This document shows positions 19,849 to 25,239 of a DNA stretch of 64,000 bases, one piece after another. The DNA comes from Bacilli bacterium (lineage in GTDB: Bacteria; Bacillota_I; Bacilli_A; RFN20; CAG-826): the NCBI GenBank assembly GCA_051872335.1, contig JBJEDT010000037.1, positions 151 to 64,150 of the forward strand, given 5' to 3'. The notes below the pieces were generated by a model, which was not told the origin of the DNA, searched no databases, and saw only the letters and a list, made by a program, of their open reading frames with translations. A program made the translations under genes and the position numbers. Position 1 is the stretch's first letter. Each line of letters starts with the position of its first letter.

Positions 19849-21114
19849 TCATGATCTTATTTCCTCAACTTTATTCATCACATCGTTCATATTTTTAGAA
19901 GATAAAAATATAAATACTTGTTTTTCTTTTGTAAAACAATCTTTTGTTAAACTATTCAAATCATCAAGATAATGAAATTTTTTATTAAGTAATAAAAGCG
20001 ATGATGTTTTTTTATTGACACGTTCGTATAAAGGTAAAACATAAATATCATTTGCAAAATTTAATGCTTTTTTAAATTCATGTTTATAAAATAACAAACG
20101 TGAAAAACGATCGGGTTTAAAAAAGACGGTTAGCTTTAAACTAGGATATTTTTCTTTAATAAATTTTAAAGTTGCTTTAATCTCATTAGGATGATGCGCA
20201 TAATCGTCAATATATATATCCCCGTTTATTATCGTGGTATTAATTCGCCTATTTACACCGGCAAATTTTGCCAAATTTTCATTTAATAATTTAAATTCTA
20301 TATTATGTTCTAATCCATATGCAACAATAGATAGAGCATGTATAAAATTAAAAAATCCATAAAAAGGTAAAATTAATTTATCAATATATTCTTTCTTATG
20401 AAATAATTTACCTTCAATTATTTCGTTATCATGTTTTACATCTTTTAAATAATAATCAGCTTTTTTAGATGTTCCATATGTAATTATATTTTCATGTTTT
20501 ACTTTTTTATAGTCTTCGTAAGGTATATATATTTTATTAGCTTTGCTTAAAAATTTTTGAAAACTATTTATATAAGCTTTTTGGTTTTTAAAAAAATCGG
20601 TATGATCAAAATCAATATTAGTTAAAATACATTCTTTTGGAGTAAAGTTTAAAAAATTATTTTTATATTCACAAGCTTCAAAAACAATGCTTTCTTTATT
20701 ACCTCCAAATCCTATTCCATCTCCTCTTAACATTTCTATATTAATGATATTTTTAAATGTATCATAAAATAATCCAACTGTTGTCGTTTTACCATGTGTT
20801 CCACAAATAGCAATCGAATATTTATTTTTTATATAATCACTAAGAAAGTTTATATATGAAGTGGTATTCTTTTTATTAAATAAAAATTGGAATTTTGCAT
20901 TATCTTTATAGTAATTACCAATAATATAATTAAAATCTTTTTTGTACGAGAAATCATCAATTAATTCATATTGAATATTGTATTCTTCTAATAAATCTTG
21001 AGTAAAAAAATAATCGCTAATATCACAACCTGTAACATAATTACCATTGTCTTTTAAAATACGCGCTAAGGAAGACATTCCTGTCCCTTTTATACCAACT
21101 AAATAATATTTCAT
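19849..21114 (-). CDS. murC: UDP-N-acetylmuramate--L-alanine ligase
   Basis: VGIKGTGMSSLA, ICGTHGKTTT, EACEY, NIDFDHTD, DDYAHHPNEI; SD GGTGA before ATG 21114. Confidence 0.9.
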   Translation of the reverse strand: MKYYLVGIKGTGMSSLARILKDNGNYVTGCDISDYFFTQDLLEEYNIQYELIDDFSYKKDFNYIIGNYYKDNAKFQFLFNKKNTTSYINFLSDYIKNKYSIAICGTHGKTTTVGLFYDTFKNIINIEMLRGDGIGFGGNKESIVFEACEYKNNFLNFTPKECILTNIDFDHTDFFKNQKAYINSFQKFLSKANKIYIPYEDYKKVKHENIITYGTSKKADYYLKDVKHDNEIIEGKLFHKKEYIDKLILPFYGFFNFIHALSIVAYGLEHNIEFKLLNENLAKFAGVNRRINTTIINGDIYIDDYAHHPNEIKATLKFIKEKYPSLKLTVFFKPDRFSRLLFYKHEFKKALNFANDIYVLPLYERVNKKTSSLLLLNKKFHYLDDLNSLTKDCFTKEKQVFIFLSSKNMNDVMNKVEEIRS

Positions 21115-21118
21115 AAAA
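21086..21118 (-). repeat. Direct repeat copy 1 (murC 5' end)
   Basis: 31/33 identical to 22944-22976 by manual alignment. Confidence 0.9.
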
Positions 21119-21151
21119 ATCACCACTACATTATATGCAAGTGGTGATTTT
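21116..21151 (-). terminator. Hairpin between the cassette and murC, overlapping the murC SD
   Basis: 12-bp perfect arms AAAATCACCACT/AGTGGTGATTTT with 12-nt loop. Confidence 0.7.
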
Positions 21152-21157
21152 AAAATT

Positions 21158-21970
21158 TTATATAACTATTTTATACTTGAAATGTTTCTCTTGAAAATAA
21201 ATGTTCTTTTTAATTTCTTCTATTGAATATTCCTTATTATCAGTAACAACTATTAACTTATCTTCAATATCATTTTCTCTTTCAATAACTGCATATATTT
21301 TACCTACACAGTTAGTTACAGGCTCATCAACACCGAAGACATATGCATCTTGATATTCATCATCAGCAGCTTTAATTTCCTTTATATAACCATAATTTAT
21401 TGGATATATAATATCTTTATGTTTTGGGTGTATTGATCCAATTGGCCTATCAATATAAACTTTAACTTTCTTTCCAATATTAGTTTCCAACTTTTCTCTG
21501 ATAATTAATTTTTTTAATAATTTATATGCATCTTTTTCCAAATCTAGAAGCTGATAATTAATACTTTCCATCATTTTTTCTGTCGCTTGTTCAATGTCAA
21601 AAGTGTGATATATATTGTAATATGATACAATTTTCTTTGCATTAAAAAGTTTGAAAACTTCTCTGCTAGACAATTTATAGATTATTGACAAAGCTCTATA
21701 AATGTAACCAATCCAAAACATTTCATTTTTAGAATATTTAGTTTGTCCATAAGAAGAAGATCCGTATTCATTATCAATTTCATAAAAACAATCGTTTATG
21801 TCAAGTGCCATAACTAAAAAACTATAATCGTCGAATTTTTTTGATAAGTTTGATAGCATAAACCTTCTAATAAAAATCAAAGAACTACACTCGACTTTAT
21901 CTACTGATTCTTCAAATATTTTTCCTTGTATTTGACATAATTTTCTTTCATTAAAATCTAACTTTTTCAT
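21158..21970 (-). CDS. DUF3990-partner helical domain fused to an inorganic-pyrophosphatase-like domain
   Basis: N-half has FWIGYIYR...YHT motif; C-terminal about 110 aa has IDRPIGS.HP, YPINYGYI, DDEYQDAY, EDKLIV; ATGA overlap with upstream gene. Confidence 0.65.
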   Translation of the reverse strand: MKKLDFNERKLCQIQGKIFEESVDKVECSSLIFIRRFMLSNLSKKFDDYSFLVMALDINDCFYEIDNEYGSSSYGQTKYSKNEMFWIGYIYRALSIIYKLSSREVFKLFNAKKIVSYYNIYHTFDIEQATEKMMESINYQLLDLEKDAYKLLKKLIIREKLETNIGKKVKVYIDRPIGSIHPKHKDIIYPINYGYIKEIKAADDEYQDAYVFGVDEPVTNCVGKIYAVIERENDIEDKLIVVTDNKEYSIEEIKKNIYFQEKHFKYKIVI

Positions 21971-22818
21971 TTTAGCAATTCATCAATATATTGACCCTTT
22001 CCACGATATTCAATCCTAGCAACTTTTACTTTATTTAAGTTTATGTTATTATTTTCTAGTCTTTTATTTTTATACATTTCTTTTTCTTTGCTTGATAAGA
22101 AAAACAATTTAATAAAATCTAATTTTTTTAGAGCTATCTTTGATTTAATAACATATTGATTTCCTAAATTAGTAGCTGCTAAAGCATGTTCGCATTGTTC
22201 GTTTGTAATTGCTCCATCTACAAATTCAGAAATCAAATCAAACATTCTATTATCAGCAATGGGAGCTATTATAATATCTGCATTTTCAACTTTTTTGATA
22301 ATGCTAATTATCAATTCATTTTGAGTATAATTATGCAACCATCCTCTATAATATGCAATTGCTAACATCCATTCCGTATTAACATTAAATTTTTCAACTT
22401 TTAGTTTGTTTGTGTTTAATGAAAATGAATATACATATTTAGATGAAGTATTTGCTATATAAGTAGATGCTTGTTCAAAATTTTCCCCTAAATAAAATCC
22501 TCTCCCAAAATCATTGTTTTCTTTTGAATACTTTAAATCTAGTGGTAATTCGATGACGTTTCTTGCACCATGAAATAAAAGTTTAGAATTTCTTTTTTCA
22601 CAATCTTCATAAAATATTTGTTCATAGATTTTATTAATATTTATTCCTTTTTCTAATGCATAATTATAAATCGCATCGATGTTTTTTTCTTCAATTTCAG
22701 TTTTTTCGTTTTCCCATCTACTAATTGTATCTAATGAAACACCAATATTTAAAGCTAAATCTTCTTGTGTTAAAGATAACAACTCTCTAATAACTTTCAA
22801 CTCTTTATTAACACGCAT
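21967..22818 (-). CDS. Xre HTH fused to DUF3990 (ADP-ribosyltransferase-like) domain
   Basis: LTQEDLALNIGVSLDTISRWENE HTH; LFHGA...DFGRGFYLG..EQA, IIIAPIADNR, LGNQYVIKS motifs. Confidence 0.75.
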   Translation of the reverse strand: MRVNKELKVIRELLSLTQEDLALNIGVSLDTISRWENEKTEIEEKNIDAIYNYALEKGININKIYEQIFYEDCEKRNSKLLFHGARNVIELPLDLKYSKENNDFGRGFYLGENFEQASTYIANTSSKYVYSFSLNTNKLKVEKFNVNTEWMLAIAYYRGWLHNYTQNELIISIIKKVENADIIIAPIADNRMFDLISEFVDGAITNEQCEHALAATNLGNQYVIKSKIALKKLDFIKLFFLSSKEKEMYKNKRLENNNINLNKVKVARIEYRGKGQYIDELLK

Positions 22819-22840
22819 TTAAACCCCACCTTTCGATAGT

Positions 22841-22869
22841 ATTATATACAATTATAAACACAAAGTCAA
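22841..22869 (-). promoter_or_regulatory. Sigma-A promoter of the HTH-DUF3990 cassette
   Basis: TTGACT-N17-TATAAT followed by SD AAAGGTGGGG. Confidence 0.8.
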
Positions 22870-22924
22870 AACTTATATTTATTAAATGTCGAATACAAGT
22901 TATAGATTAATAAATTTAACGCCA

Positions 22925-22972
22925 TCATAACGAAATACCAGAACCTTTTATACCAATTAAATAATATTGCAT
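22925..22972 (-). pseudogene. murC: Truncated murC 5' fragment (direct repeat copy 2)
   Basis: Translates to MQYYLIGIKGSGISL* versus MurC MKYYLVGIKGTGMSSL; repeat core 22944-22976. Confidence 0.85.
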
Positions 22973-23340
22973 AAAATTACTATTAAAAAATATGAAATTA
23001 ATTTAATAATATGCCACTACCATTGTTATTATTTAATTTAAAAGCAGTAGTAATCTTTATTACTTAATTTATTTGTTTTTTAAAATATACACAAATTGAT
23101 CAATCTATGTTTGATTTATTATTTTAATAATTGCTTCCATTTAATCATAAAATGTTTTTCAATATTATAATTAATTAAATCTTTTCAAAAAGTTAAACTG
23201 ATGAAATTCGATTATATATCCATATTTTCATATTCTATTTATATTAAAAATTATAAATGATGCCACAAAAATCAAAATTATTGTTAAACAATAATATTTA
23301 TATTTAGAATAAAAATAGTTTATTTTCATATCTTAAATAT

Positions 23341-23889
23341 ATGATAAATAATTTAATTAAAGCATCAAAACACATATTAGTATTTATATTATTTTCATTT
23401 ATTGGATGGTTCTGGGAAACTATATTAGTTCTTATTTTATATAATTCAATTTCAAATATTGGCTTTCTTCATTTACCAATATGCCCTATATATGGAACAA
23501 CTATTTTGCTATGTTATTTACTGTTAGGTACACCAAATAATTTTAAGTTGCCTTTAAAACGATTATCAAATAAGAAATTAAAAACTATATTATATTTATT
23601 AATATTATTTATAGTTCCTACCATTATAGAAGTTATAGTTGGTAATTATTTTTATAATAAATATGGTATTGTTTTATGGTCTTATGAAGGCCTTCCTTTA
23701 ACAATAGGAAAATATATAAATCTATTTGTTTCTTTATTTTGGGCTGTTTGCATTTTCTTAATCATGAGATACCTAATTGAACCCATTTATAGATTTTTAA
23801 ATAATGTTAGTACTTTTAATATTTTAGGTCTTTCCTTAACATTTATTTTACTTACTGCAATAGATTTTATTATTTGTATAAAAAAATAA
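23341..23889 (+). CDS. Putative ABC transporter permease (CmpB/DUF1113-like membrane protein)
   Basis: FSFIGWFWE, GFLHLPICPIYG, LWSY motifs; about 5 TM helices. Confidence 0.7.
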   Translation: MINNLIKASKHILVFILFSFIGWFWETILVLILYNSISNIGFLHLPICPIYGTTILLCYLLLGTPNNFKLPLKRLSNKKLKTILYLLILFIVPTIIEVIVGNYFYNKYGIVLWSYEGLPLTIGKYINLFVSLFWAVCIFLIMRYLIEPIYRFLNNVSTFNILGLSLTFILLTAIDFIICIKK

Positions 23890-23951: not shown

Positions 23952-24602
23952 TTATTTTTCATTATTTGTTTCTTCAATGTCTTTTTTCCAATCTTTTGTT
24001 AAAGTTTTATTTTTTCTTATTTCAGAAACAGCTTCACAAAGACAAACATAATTTGCTTTAACACCATCTTTATTATTTTTATAATTAACTGCTAAATCTT
24101 TATTTATTCCTAGTTTTGATGCTTCAGCAATTGTGTCAATATTAGCACCTATAAAAATAACTTCCCATTTCTTATTTTTTCTTAATCGTTCAATGATTTT
24201 TCTAACTGTTTTGTAGTTAAACTTATAACTTGAATTTTCTTGTCCATCAGTTATTATAACAAGTAACGTTTTTGTTATTGTTTTTGATTGTTCGTCTTTT
24301 GCTTGTTTTCTTTCAATATAGGTTGTTGTACTTCCTATTGCATCAAGTAAAGCTGTAGAACCAAATGGTTCATAATCTTCTTTTGTCAATTCATGAATCT
24401 TTTTAATATTAACTCGATTATGAATTGTTCTTGAGTTATCACTAAACATAACTGTTGTAACTATTGCTTCCCCCTCCTCATTTTTTTGTTTTTTAATAAG
24501 TGAATTGAAACCATCAATAGTTTCTTGTCTTAAATCGGACATTGACCCACTTTCATCTAAAATGAATACTAATTCTGTAAATTCTTTTTTCATATCTTTC
24601 AT
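23952..24602 (-). CDS. Stand-alone von Willebrand factor A domain protein
   Basis: MIDAS DESGSM, TALLDAIG, IITDGQENSS, FIGAN. Confidence 0.88.
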   Translation of the reverse strand: MKDMKKEFTELVFILDESGSMSDLRQETIDGFNSLIKKQKNEEGEAIVTTVMFSDNSRTIHNRVNIKKIHELTKEDYEPFGSTALLDAIGSTTTYIERKQAKDEQSKTITKTLLVIITDGQENSSYKFNYKTVRKIIERLRKNKKWEVIFIGANIDTIAEASKLGINKDLAVNYKNNKDGVKANYVCLCEAVSEIRKNKTLTKDWKKDIEETNNEK

Positions 24603-24643
24603 TCCTTTCTTTATAGCTTTATTGTAAATAAAAAGGAATTAAA

Positions 24644-24668
24644 AAAAGTCACTTCTGAAGTGACTTTT
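24644..24668. promoter_or_regulatory. Perfect palindrome between HTH gene and vWA gene (operator and/or terminator)
   Basis: AAAAGTCACTTC-T-GAAGTGACTTTT; a -10-like TACAAT lies just downstream on the minus strand. Confidence 0.6.
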
Positions 24669-24669
24669 A

Positions 24670-25239
24670 TCAATTAATAGAAAATAATTTATAACTCATT
24701 TCTTCTAAAATTAGATTAATATTAAATACATTATAAATGCTTTCTTCAATACAATATCTAATGACTAAATCTCGTGCTATTGATAATGATAAAGTATAAC
24801 CAGCTTTAGCTAATAAATCTAAAGAATCATCTAAATTTAATTTTAACCCTATGCACATTTGAATTGCTGTATCTTTTGTTGGTTGATAATTTTCATTATA
24901 TCTAATTTTAGAAAATGTCTGTTTAGAAATACTAGCTCTTTTATATACGTCAGGATCTTTAAAGTTCTTTCTATCTATAATTTTAAAAACTGTTTTTTGC
25001 CAAGAATCAGTTGCATCTTCGATAATATTTTCTAAAGAACGTTTGTTTTTTGAGATTGATTTATTTTCTTCACATATTGTTAAACATTCACAATTTTTAA
25101 CAAAATGTTTATCCATATCAGAAAACAAAGAATCTGCAGAATTATCTTCAAAGTTATTTTCAATAATTAAATTATTACATATGTATAACTTAATTTTAGA
25201 AATTAAATCTTTATTTATTTTTAAATGCATTGCCATCAC
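24670..25239 (-). CDS. Xre-like HTH regulator (type often fused to macro domains)
   Basis: DPDVYKRASISKQTFSKIR...YQPTKDTA...LLAKAGYTLS motif. Confidence 0.65.
   Translation of the reverse strand: MMAMHLKINKDLISKIKLYICNNLIIENNFEDNSADSLFSDMDKHFVKNCECLTICEENKSISKNKRSLENIIEDATDSWQKTVFKIIDRKNFKDPDVYKRASISKQTFSKIRYNENYQPTKDTAIQMCIGLKLNLDDSLDLLAKAGYTLSLSIARDLVIRYCIEESIYNVFNINLILEEMSYKLFSIN

Follow-up and report, generated by a model that had tools for sequence, protein, structure and literature searches.

The stretch of DNA considered here, referred to in the following as the window, comprises 64,000 nucleotides (nt) of contig JBJEDT010000037.1 from the genome of a Bacilli bacterium (assembly GCA_051872335.1; GTDB lineage Bacillota_I, Bacilli_A, RFN20, CAG-826), and it carries on its minus strand a compact module of two genes. 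In the list of open reading frames (ORFs) of the window, gene 1 (21967..22818, (-)) encodes 283 amino acid residues (aa) and gene 2 (21158..21970, (-)) encodes 270; the two overlap by four bases (21967-21970; ATGA in the minus-strand reading). The product of gene 1 joins an Xre-type helix-turn-helix (HTH) domain to a DUF3990 domain, for which a fold of the ADP-ribosyltransferase (ART) type is predicted, and the product of gene 2 joins an all-helical partner domain to a truncated domain of the family I pyrophosphatase (PPase) type. The module is real, intact and recurrent, and it is a variant of a known, uncharacterised type. As a whole it is read here, with a confidence only a little better than even, as an autoregulated bicistronic module of the toxin-antitoxin type built around an ART-fold protein, with an optional accessory domain of the pyrophosphatase type.

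The promoter of the module (TTGACT-17-TATAAT) lies 22 nt upstream of the ATG of gene 1, which is itself preceded, at a distance of 5-6 nt, by the ribosome-binding site AAAGGTGGGG. It is the top-scoring of 26 promoter-like sites in the region 20900-23400; shuffled sequences give a mean of 25.2 such sites, so that the count, being at chance level, is uninformative, and it is the quality of the match, its position and its recurring spacing that matter instead. Indeed, the spacing between the -35 and -10 hexamers recurs in related loci. The palindrome AACTT-N22-AAGTT, which adjoins this promoter, is also found in the 110 nt upstream of gene 1 relatives in 47 of 65 loci, and in 47 of the 65 it abuts or overlaps the promoter; its 69 occurrences, often arranged as tandem pairs, always have a spacer of 22 nt. 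Shuffles contain 0.39 such palindromes on average (maximum 3), and control regions none (0 of 61). Being conserved across these loci, the palindrome supports autoregulation through the HTH domain, which is predicted to bind it. A preliminary description of the window had proposed a near-consensus sigma-A promoter ahead of both genes, their coupling through an ATGA overlap and control of the module by its own product; the first two are read directly in the DNA (with 11 of 12 promoter positions matching), and the third gains support from the putative operator that abuts the -35 hexamer.

In the product of gene 1, Pfam locates HTH_3 at residues 7-50 (E 2.1e-9) and DUF3990 (PF13151) at residues 81-235 (E 6.9e-32), the latter with 110.7 bits against a gathering cut-off of 32.2, which is thus passed, and over profile positions 3-152 of 152. 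The translation contains LFHGA at 81-85, DFGRGFY at 103-109 and Q221, so that the composition given in the preliminary description, an Xre HTH followed by an FHGA...DFGRGFY...Q domain, is found with all its parts in place. The AlphaFold2 model obtained from a 22-sequence alignment has a predicted local distance difference test score (pLDDT) of 93 and a predicted TM-score (pTM) of 0.87; its HTH part consists of five helices, and the neighbours of this fold retrieved by Foldseek in the PDB include the P22 c2 repressor, C.Esp1396I and HipB. Among the other collections searched, NCBIfam returned only HTH models below cut-off for gene 1 and nothing for gene 2, and PHROGs only HTH families, with nothing useful for gene 2.

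That DUF3990 would adopt an ART fold is supported by the consistency of the neighbours of the model rather than by strong scores. According to the accessible text of PMC7955679, Pfam assigns DUF3990 to its ART clan. The PDB neighbours of the gene 1 model outside the HTH part are a diphtheria-toxin homologue (E 8e-3), MbcT (8.4e-3) and ParT (2.4e-2, TMt 0.50), besides PARP1, tankyrase and diphtheria toxin, all of these ART-fold matches having probabilities of 0.6-0.97, E-values of 8e-3 to 6e-2 and TM-scores of 0.3-0.5. Three matches at E ≤ 1e-3 were found in BFVD, one of them named PolyVal ADP-ribosyltransferase; the best (1.8e-8, TMt 0.60) is a protein of 202 aa that has no name, and more matches named ART-PolyVal and PARP follow down to E 1e-2. 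At the level of sequence profiles, the family aligns lfHG, DFGlGFY and Y120 to LFHGS, FGAGIYF and Y of tankyrase, at an E-value that stays at only about 0.05 and in a match that depends on inclusion of the linker helix. The clan membership and the neighbours of a high-confidence model thus agree with the ART-like nature that the preliminary description had attributed to DUF3990. Across 24 diverse sequences, which include distant relatives from viral contigs, H83, N102-D103-F104-G105, G107-F108-Y109, D189 and Q221 are invariant (24/24) and G84 is kept in at least 90%, as is Y120 in the 22-sequence alignment. Among them, H83, G84, G105, G107, Y109 and Y120 make up the H-G ... G-x-G-x-Y ... Y pattern by which NAD+-binding His and Tyr residues would be recognised; by their conservation, D189 and Q221 are the candidates for a third catalytic residue.

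Residues 1-160 of the gene 2 product are predicted to form helices only. They are matched by the PADLOC model PDC-M42B (residues 12-134, E 2e-8) and, weakly, by Pfam DUF3791 (PF12668; residues 98-137, E 0.0036, 17.7 bits against a cut-off of 25), which reaches E ≤ 0.01 in 4 of 20 family members and in 3 of 26 ORFs located downstream of DUF3990 genes; since the window match is below cut-off and such matches are sparse elsewhere, the domain is termed DUF3791-like only. In the ESM Atlas the best score of this domain is 0.85, with clusters automatically named 'putative Antitoxin'; being below the level at which the tool is trusted, this is a lead only. The predicted complex between DUF3990 (76-283) and the partner domain (1-160) reached 0.28 with respect to a mark of 0.32, which speaks neither for nor against binding. 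In a set of 25 proteins in which the partner domain has an alternative C-terminus, GNAT is found six times and ASCH once.

The C-terminal domain of gene 2 contains YPINYGYI (189-196), DDEYQDAY (203-210) and EDKL (236-239). The Pfam match to family I PPases (PF00719; residues 165-254) is weak, at E 0.0075 and 16.5 bits, below the cut-off of 23.5, and the same profile reaches E ≤ 0.01 in 11 of 20 family members (best 1.7e-6). At E ≤ 1e-3, the gene 2 model (pLDDT 90.2) retrieves 50 fold matches from the PDB, those listed being all family I PPases (probability 1.00, TMt 0.38-0.51). With helices modelled, motifs present and the fold matched, the earlier reading of gene 2 as a helical domain followed by a PPase-like one is borne out. 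The profile of the domain family matches PDB sequences at E 0.002-0.005 and, by hhalign, the genome's own family I PPase with a probability of 88% and E 2.8e-6, aligning the motifs DR, YPxNYG, DxExxD and D..EDK and covering only residues 39-108 of the 178 canonical ones. The active site of Escherichia coli PPase is formed by E20, K29, E31, R43, Y55, D65, D67, D70, D97, D102, K104, Y141 and K142. A complete set was not found in the window domain, as the alignment stops at the core and leaves both end segments unmatched; the core residues kept are D174, R175, N192-Y193-G194, D203, E205, D208, D234, E236 and K238. Judging from this alignment, the central metal- and phosphate-binding core is retained and both end segments of the PPase are lacking.

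A housekeeping role was considered for this domain and rejected, since the genome encodes a full family I PPase of its own (205.9 bits) as well as a membrane H+-PPase (860.7 bits). Where the PPase-like domain is attached to other partners, its core residues do not vary (60 of 60 proteins), these partners being NUDIX (11), GNAT (8), GrpB (4), P-loop kinases (4), RhuM, HIT and HepT (3 each) and, once each, AAC(3), which is an aminoglycoside 3-N-acetyltransferase, Tpt1/KptA, HAD, NAD(P)HX dehydratase and ASCH. Related arrangements were observed in loci of other genomes. In a related genome (L005, 1492-2868, (-)), a 458-aa protein combines a RhuM-family domain (E 1.5e-98) with the PPase-like domain, and its gene adjoins one for a membrane protein that has an Xre HTH and a zinc-ribbon-like tail. 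Stand-alone PPase-like domains of 111 aa, with the more canonical sequence YPVNYGYIPNT..DGEELDAY, are encoded in L006 (1495-1830) and L007 (1483-1818), in the latter just 3' of a gene for an Xre-HTH membrane protein.

Table 1. Features of the two-gene module and of its borders, in window coordinates
Feature	Position	Strand	Remarks
Vestigial duplicate of the Mur ligase gene start	22919..22976	(-)	Upstream of the module; partner copy at 21061-21118
Predicted operator, palindrome	22870..22901	(-)	AACTT-N22-AAGTT; directly touches the -35 hexamer
Promoter, sigma-70-type	22841..22869	(-)	TTGACT-17-TATAAT, 11/12 matches
Gene 1 residues 1-75, Xre-type HTH and linker helix	22594..22818	(-)	Pfam HTH_3
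Gene 1 residues 76-283 and stop, DUF3990 (predicted ART fold)	21967..22593	(-)	PF13151
Gene 2 residues 1-160, all-helical partner domain (DUF3791-like, PDC-M42B-like)	21491..21970	(-)	
Gene 2 residues 165-270 and stop, truncated family-I-PPase-like (InPase-type) domain	21158..21478	(-)	
Stable hairpin and U-run	21108..21156	(-)	Follows the stop of gene 2, ahead of the Mur ligase gene (ATG at 21112)

The recurrence of the module was assessed from a search of 5.8 billion proteins, in which 282 sequences related to gene 2 were found (E ≤ 1e-3); 119 of the 120 listed have at least 94% query coverage and are 49-93% identical to it. With one genome taken per species, relatives are encoded by 111 stretches, of which 80 loci, from 80 other genomes, were retained. 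These come mainly from gut Bacillota and genomes of the Mycoplasmatota type, a few being binned to other phyla, and purpose-built hidden Markov models (HMMs) of the domains found 81 partner genes in them. A DUF3990 ORF lies directly 5' of 76 of the 81, with the 4-nt overlap in 56, and the same overlap is found in 32 of the 34 partner genes of the long form, i.e. with a PPase-like domain; the partner genes that have no DUF3990 ORF directly upstream are those of L045, L060, L061, L064 and L066, that of L061 being an orphan with a decayed PPase-like domain. Conversely, in a sample seeded with DUF3990, nine of nine genes with an HTH-DUF3990 fusion are followed by a partner gene. DUF3990 was detected in 30 of 200 sampled genomes of the class, with up to eight matches per genome. 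The layout typical of type II toxin-antitoxin systems, with adjacent, co-directional, translationally coupled and co-occurring genes, is therefore that of the module.

The HTH domain can move between the two chains. It is found at the C-terminus of the partner, with DUF3990 devoid of HTH, in the loci L099-L108 from viral contigs and in the genome loci L122, L124 and L125; in P0391, P0392, P0394 and P0402 (the last representing eight sequences) a single chain contains DUF3990, the partner domain and the HTH, these cases being seen as proteins only and thus open to gene-calling error. DUF3990, the helical partner and the HTH would accordingly form one unit, whichever chain carries each of them, as far as this comparison of sequences goes. 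Relatives are found on 18 viral contigs. One of these (L106, 4255-8536) encodes in succession a 542-aa protein, which we take, unverified, to be a terminase large subunit, a DUF3990 protein of 250 aa without HTH, a partner::HTH fusion of 212 aa and a 418-aa protein matching PDC-S15, and has the appearance of a small group of defence candidates within a phage or prophage. Precomputed Pfam labels also assign to P0393 and P0409 fusions of DUF3990 to TraG/VirD4-type coupling-protein domains, and to P0395 and P0404 fusions with RhuM plus Fic and with a type I restriction specificity-subunit domain. In L114-L121, the shortest DUF3990 genes (about 160 aa, with the strongest Pfam matches) are followed by ORFs of 65-78 aa, in which the partner HMM finds no match and Pfam DUF3791 mostly none, and which may represent a third type of partner.

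The PPase-like domain behaves differently from the rest of the unit. It is present on 34 of the 81 partner genes, the other 47 being short, of about 160-170 aa; the fusion seen in the window is, hence, no one-off assembly artefact. In a quick maximum-likelihood tree of the partner N-terminal domain, one side of a branch with support 95 contains all 35 long forms, the window copy included, with 16 short ones, and the opposite side 32 short forms only. Parsimony counts 12 changes of state, at least five of which are forced by well-supported branches, and this pattern fits a single origin of the long forms followed by repeated loss of the PPase-like domain. All ten core residues are kept in 18 of the 35 long forms, including that of the window, and altered in 17, in contrast to their invariance in the fusions to other partners. 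Being missing from many partners and altered in its core in others, the domain is not essential to the system. Among the best 150 cluster representatives, 15 are window-like, 20 have the N-terminal domain alone, 26 the N-terminal domain with another C-terminus, 19 the PPase-like domain alone and 70 the PPase-like domain fused to other proteins, so that both domains of gene 2 are, by this count, mobile modules. Broken copies are found in L020, L052 and L061. A second module is present in the genome under study on another contig (L010, 650-2370): its HTH-DUF3990 protein (284 aa) is 41% identical to gene 1, and its 289-aa partner, encoded after an ATGA overlap, has a C-terminal GNAT acetyltransferase domain in place of the PPase-like one.

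As to the surroundings of the module, genes for a Mur ligase, a small protein and LacI are found on one side, and those for a CmpB-like protein, a vWA protein, an HTH protein and DUF1292 on the other, together with a gene that is presumably that of RuvX. A location within a defence island is not supported, given flanks of LacI, Mur ligase, DUF1292 and the putative RuvX and no PADLOC match among the four neighbours tested. Between the module and DUF1292 (23952-25239, (-)), the vWA protein of 216 aa and the HTH protein, an HTH_26 protein of 189 aa, have no PADLOC match, and both genes are missing from the same neighbourhood in G008, a genome of another genus. Of the genomes compared, only the latter has this neighbourhood without the module; within the same genus, G001 yielded no match to the Mur ligase, and the G002 gene runs into a contig end. 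A Mur ligase gene directly 3' of the module is found also in L017 and L018, and a match about 3 kilobases away in L016; these three are the only ones of the 80 loci with a Mur ligase in the flanks.

Traces of a possible insertion are visible at the borders. The module is flanked by a direct repeat (D1) of 58 nt, with copies that are 78% identical and have a spacing of 1858, and its upstream copy consists of about 15 Mur ligase codons (MQYYLIGIKGSGISL) followed by a stop. This remnant is nearer to the gene start in G008 (LIGIKGSG) than is the live Mur ligase gene of the window, and such a duplicated 5' end suggests that the module arrived by recombination, along with the 5' end of a foreign Mur ligase gene. 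The hairpin between gene 2 and the Mur ligase gene has a 12-bp stem and a folding energy, as RNA, of -17.8 kcal/mol (z -4.16); its 3' arm contains GGUGA, which serves the Mur ligase gene as ribosome-binding site, and its loop contains TATAAT. It was not picked up by a terminator scan, and it could be a terminator, a mask of the ribosome-binding site or part of a Mur ligase promoter. The start of the Mur ligase in the ORF list, a GTG inside the stem (21126), is probably too early. Near-identical DNA is present in animal gut metagenomes of 12 studies. Assembled contigs of relatives, 88-95% alike, were found in two RNA libraries of one study, where they extend over part of each gene and across the junction, low-depth joints with sides of 25 letters being disregarded; RNA libraries can contain DNA, so that bridging contigs are no proof of transcription, and the stretches left uncovered are uninformative.

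How the module might work can be outlined from these elements. Gene 1 and gene 2 would be expressed together, the translation of the second being coupled to that of the first through the ATGA overlap. DUF3990, by its fold and motifs, would bind NAD+ and then either ADP-ribosylate a cellular target or consume NAD+; the helical N-terminal domain of gene 2 would be the cognate partner that binds and restrains it, and the complex of the two would sit, via the HTH, on AACTT-N22-AAGTT and repress the operon. By analogy, release or activation of DUF3990, for example upon phage infection, would halt growth. The PPase-like accessory domain would most likely hydrolyse a pyrophosphate bond, in inorganic pyrophosphate (PPi) or in a nucleotide-like compound, a product related to NAD+ or ADP-ribose being one conceivable substrate. 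The ground for this reading is given by the folds, the pairing of the genes, the shuffling of domains between chains and the palindrome, besides the multi-copy, patchy occurrence of DUF3990 and the presence of relatives on viral contigs; from it we infer NAD+ use, toxicity, neutralisation by binding, repression and the substrate of the PPase-like domain. A more specific version, which we regard as decidedly unlikely, makes the PPase-like domain an enzymatic antidote or signal eraser whose target would be a pyrophosphate bond, be it in the ADP-ribosyl product, in NAD+ itself or in a nucleotide that DUF3990 makes from NAD. It would apply to the copies that keep the catalytic core, that of the window included, in which the partner would neutralise by binding and by chemistry together.

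Several observations weigh against the toxin-antitoxin interpretation. The gene 1 model has no PDB match at E ≤ 1e-3, its TM-scores staying at 0.3-0.5, and a profile of residues 76-283 alone finds among PDB sequences only chance-level matches and no ART. The position of the PARP catalytic Glu appears to be taken by Q221; either catalysis may use another residue, such as the invariant D189, or DUF3990 only binds a ligand. The HTH is located on the putative toxin itself, which is unusual for type II systems. Concerning the accessory domain, which has about 105 residues compared with 178, about 38 N-terminal and 70 C-terminal residues of the canonical PPase have no counterpart, and these unaligned end parts are those in which the equivalents of E20, K29 and E31 and of Y141 and K142 reside; moreover, 47 of the 81 partners lack the domain, and 17 of 35 copies are changed in its core. 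None of the four neighbouring proteins tested matches PADLOC, the flanks being housekeeping genes, and the 145 candidate systems of PADLOC are described as untested in the accessible text of bioRxiv 10.1101/2024.01.29.577857.

A first alternative is that the module is not toxic at all. HTH-DUF3990 could be a transcription factor with an ART-like domain that serves only as sensor of a nicotinamide or nucleotide ligand, and the partner a co-regulator equipped with a small housekeeping enzyme, the module tuning its own expression and possibly that of the downstream Mur ligase gene too. An apparent Gln rather than a Glu opposite the PARP catalytic position, the place of the module directly 5' of the Mur ligase gene in the window, L017 and L018, the hairpin that contains the ribosome-binding site of that gene and the housekeeping neighbours would all be consistent with regulation, as would the nature of the partner C-terminal domains, since PPase-like, GNAT and ASCH domains are ordinary small enzymes. 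However, the Mur ligase flank is confined to L016, L017 and L018 of 80 loci; DUF3990 forms a patchy, multi-copy family with members on viral contigs and in fusions with TraG-type proteins of conjugation, and it also constitutes, in the accessible text of PMC4524185, the C-terminal domain of an Rhs protein. In addition, the residues of the presumed NAD+ site are invariant across distant subfamilies, beyond what a ligand sensor needs. On balance, a regulator coupled to an enzyme is unlikely.

A role in resistance to small molecules can be modelled on Arr, the ART-fold rifampin transferase: DUF3990 would act on an antibiotic or xenobiotic by ADP-ribosylation, the PPase-like and GNAT domains attached to the partner would process the compound or modify it further, and the HTH would confer inducibility. 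The fusions of the PPase-like domain with NUDIX (11/60), GNAT (8), GrpB (4), P-loop kinases (4), HIT (3) and AAC(3) (1) are in keeping with such chemistry, and related domains are tied to the tunicamycin-resistance protein TmrB in the available part of PMC5512222; yet enzymes of that kind normally do without an obligatory, translationally coupled helical partner, 47 of the 81 partners are without any enzyme domain, and DUF3990 is found in phage accessory regions and in the Rhs C-terminal domain (PMC4524185, as accessible), which leaves this explanation with a slender chance. On another view, a weapon of a mobile element is here decaying or has been domesticated: DUF3990 would have begun as an effector with which phages or conjugative elements attack their hosts, and the chromosomal copy would be kept by addiction or chance and have no present function. 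The TraG/VirD4-type fusions of P0393 and P0409, the relatives on 18 viral contigs, the duplicated Mur ligase 5' end as the mark of a recombinational insertion, the accessory domain decayed in 17 of 35 relatives and the broken copies L020, L052 and L061 all fit this history. In the window, though, both reading frames, the promoter, the ribosome-binding site and the palindrome are intact, the ten core residues of the PPase-like domain and the invariant residues of DUF3990 are kept, and contigs of close relatives in two RNA libraries span the gene junction; a functionless remnant is, thus, very unlikely. The reading as an autoregulated toxin-antitoxin-type module is retained with the modest preference stated at the outset.

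The preliminary description is, in consequence, upheld in part. Its ART-like and PPase-like domains, its autoregulation, its place among candidate toxin-antitoxin or defence systems and the recurrence of the fusion are supported; a constant role of the PPase-like domain is not. The domain had been proposed to clear a product, and, being absent from 47 of 81 partners, gained or lost in at least five changes, intact in its core in 18 of 35 copies and replaced in some partners by GNAT or ASCH, it is not a constant part; optional and often decayed as it is, an obligatory clearing role appears unlikely from the comparison of the copies. The four-domain arrangement had been said to be undescribed, and no description of it was found in the accessible parts of the literature retrieved, the supplementary tables of which may list it; the pair itself is, however, already catalogued as a candidate, and PPase-like fusions with NUDIX and GNAT are known (PMC5512222). 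New here are the 32-bp predicted operator, the evidence that DUF3990, partner and HTH form one unit, a short list of invariant residues and a natural series of partners with, without and with a decayed PPase-like domain. The module is of use chiefly as a well-defined way into an abundant ART-like family and into the mini-PPase domains. If DUF3990 were an NAD+-using toxin, it would add another ART-based toxin-antitoxin or defence family, and the mini-PPase domains fused to NUDIX, HIT, GNAT, kinase, RhuM and HepT would gain their first functional context.

Among known systems, the nearest are those of PADLOC, in which PDC-M42, PDC-M13 and PDC-M10 are phage-defence candidates predicted by guilt-by-embedding. 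The pair had been put forward as a candidate toxin-antitoxin or defence system, and the two adjacent genes do match candidate models: gene 1 matches PDC-M42A at E 1.4e-12, and better still M13A/B and M10A, and gene 2 matches PDC-M42B at E 2e-8. The viral-contig pair of L106 is a strong PDC-M42 (M42A E 2e-39, M42B E 9e-13), and the much weaker matches of the window pair make it a distant relative. In both, a DUF3990 protein is followed by a helical DUF3791-like partner, but in PDC-M42-type loci DUF3990 has no HTH and it is the partner that ends in one, whereas in the window the HTH is on DUF3990, and a PPase-like domain, present in the window partner, was not seen in the PDC-M42-type loci examined. 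PDC-M13 was counted 3324 times in rumen genomes, according to the accessible text of PMC13356809. For DUF3990 and DUF3791 themselves, the accessible parts of the literature naming them report no activity.

DUF3990 is also encountered in a quite different context, as the sole recognisable domain in the C-terminal part of Rhs5 of Serratia marcescens; in the available text of PMC4524185, Rhs proteins are treated as type-VI effectors and an immunity gene is predicted downstream of Rhs5. The latter is a large secreted protein of a Gram-negative organism, whereas the DUF3990 of the window is part of a cytoplasmic HTH fusion. ParT/ParS and MbcT/MbcA resemble the module in that a toxin of the ART superfamily and a cognate partner are encoded in a two-gene operon with an Xre-type HTH in the system, and ParT and MbcT (PDB 6d0i, 6fkg) are among the solved folds nearest to the gene 1 model. 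In both systems it is the antitoxin that carries the Xre HTH, and their toxins are members of other ART families (RES/ParT). Their antitoxins, unlike gene 2, are not known to carry a fused enzyme, and no sequence match of the module proteins to either system was found in the searches made.

As far as the accessory domain is concerned, it shares with the canonical family I PPase (PF00719) the fold and the central motifs DR, YPxNYG, DxExxD and D..EDK. Another parallel is offered by the type-I InPase domains that, in the accessible text of Iyer et al. 2017 (PMC5512222), occur in phage polyvalent proteins, with relatives fused to or adjoining NUDIX, GNAT and TmrB, the tunicamycin-resistance protein; a nucleotide-like substrate or the clearing of PPi was proposed there, and DUF3990 is not mentioned in the text available. 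A family-I-type PPase as a mobile module, with NUDIX, GNAT and P-loop partners, is common to that group and to the window family, the difference being that in the latter PF18823 (InPase) is matched by 1 of 20 members (E 0.0085) as compared with 11 of 20 for PF00719. The domain of the window belongs to this wider InPase group, yet has no match to PF18823.

Finally, DarT/DarG provides the model for a PPase-like domain that would undo or process the product of a toxin. In that system the gene of an ART-fold toxin comes first and the downstream antitoxin adds an enzymatic function to its binding function, the enzymatic domain of DarG being a macrodomain and DarT belonging to an ART family other than DUF3990. 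Pfam finds no macrodomain in gene 1 or gene 2, in contrast with DarG, and the enzymatic domain of window-type modules is optional and often decayed, which sets the two systems apart. Should the PPase-like domain nevertheless act as an enzymatic antidote in the copies that keep its core, the principle of DarG would be realised through a PPase fold in place of a macrodomain, and the widespread InPase-type mini-domains would have a first substrate.

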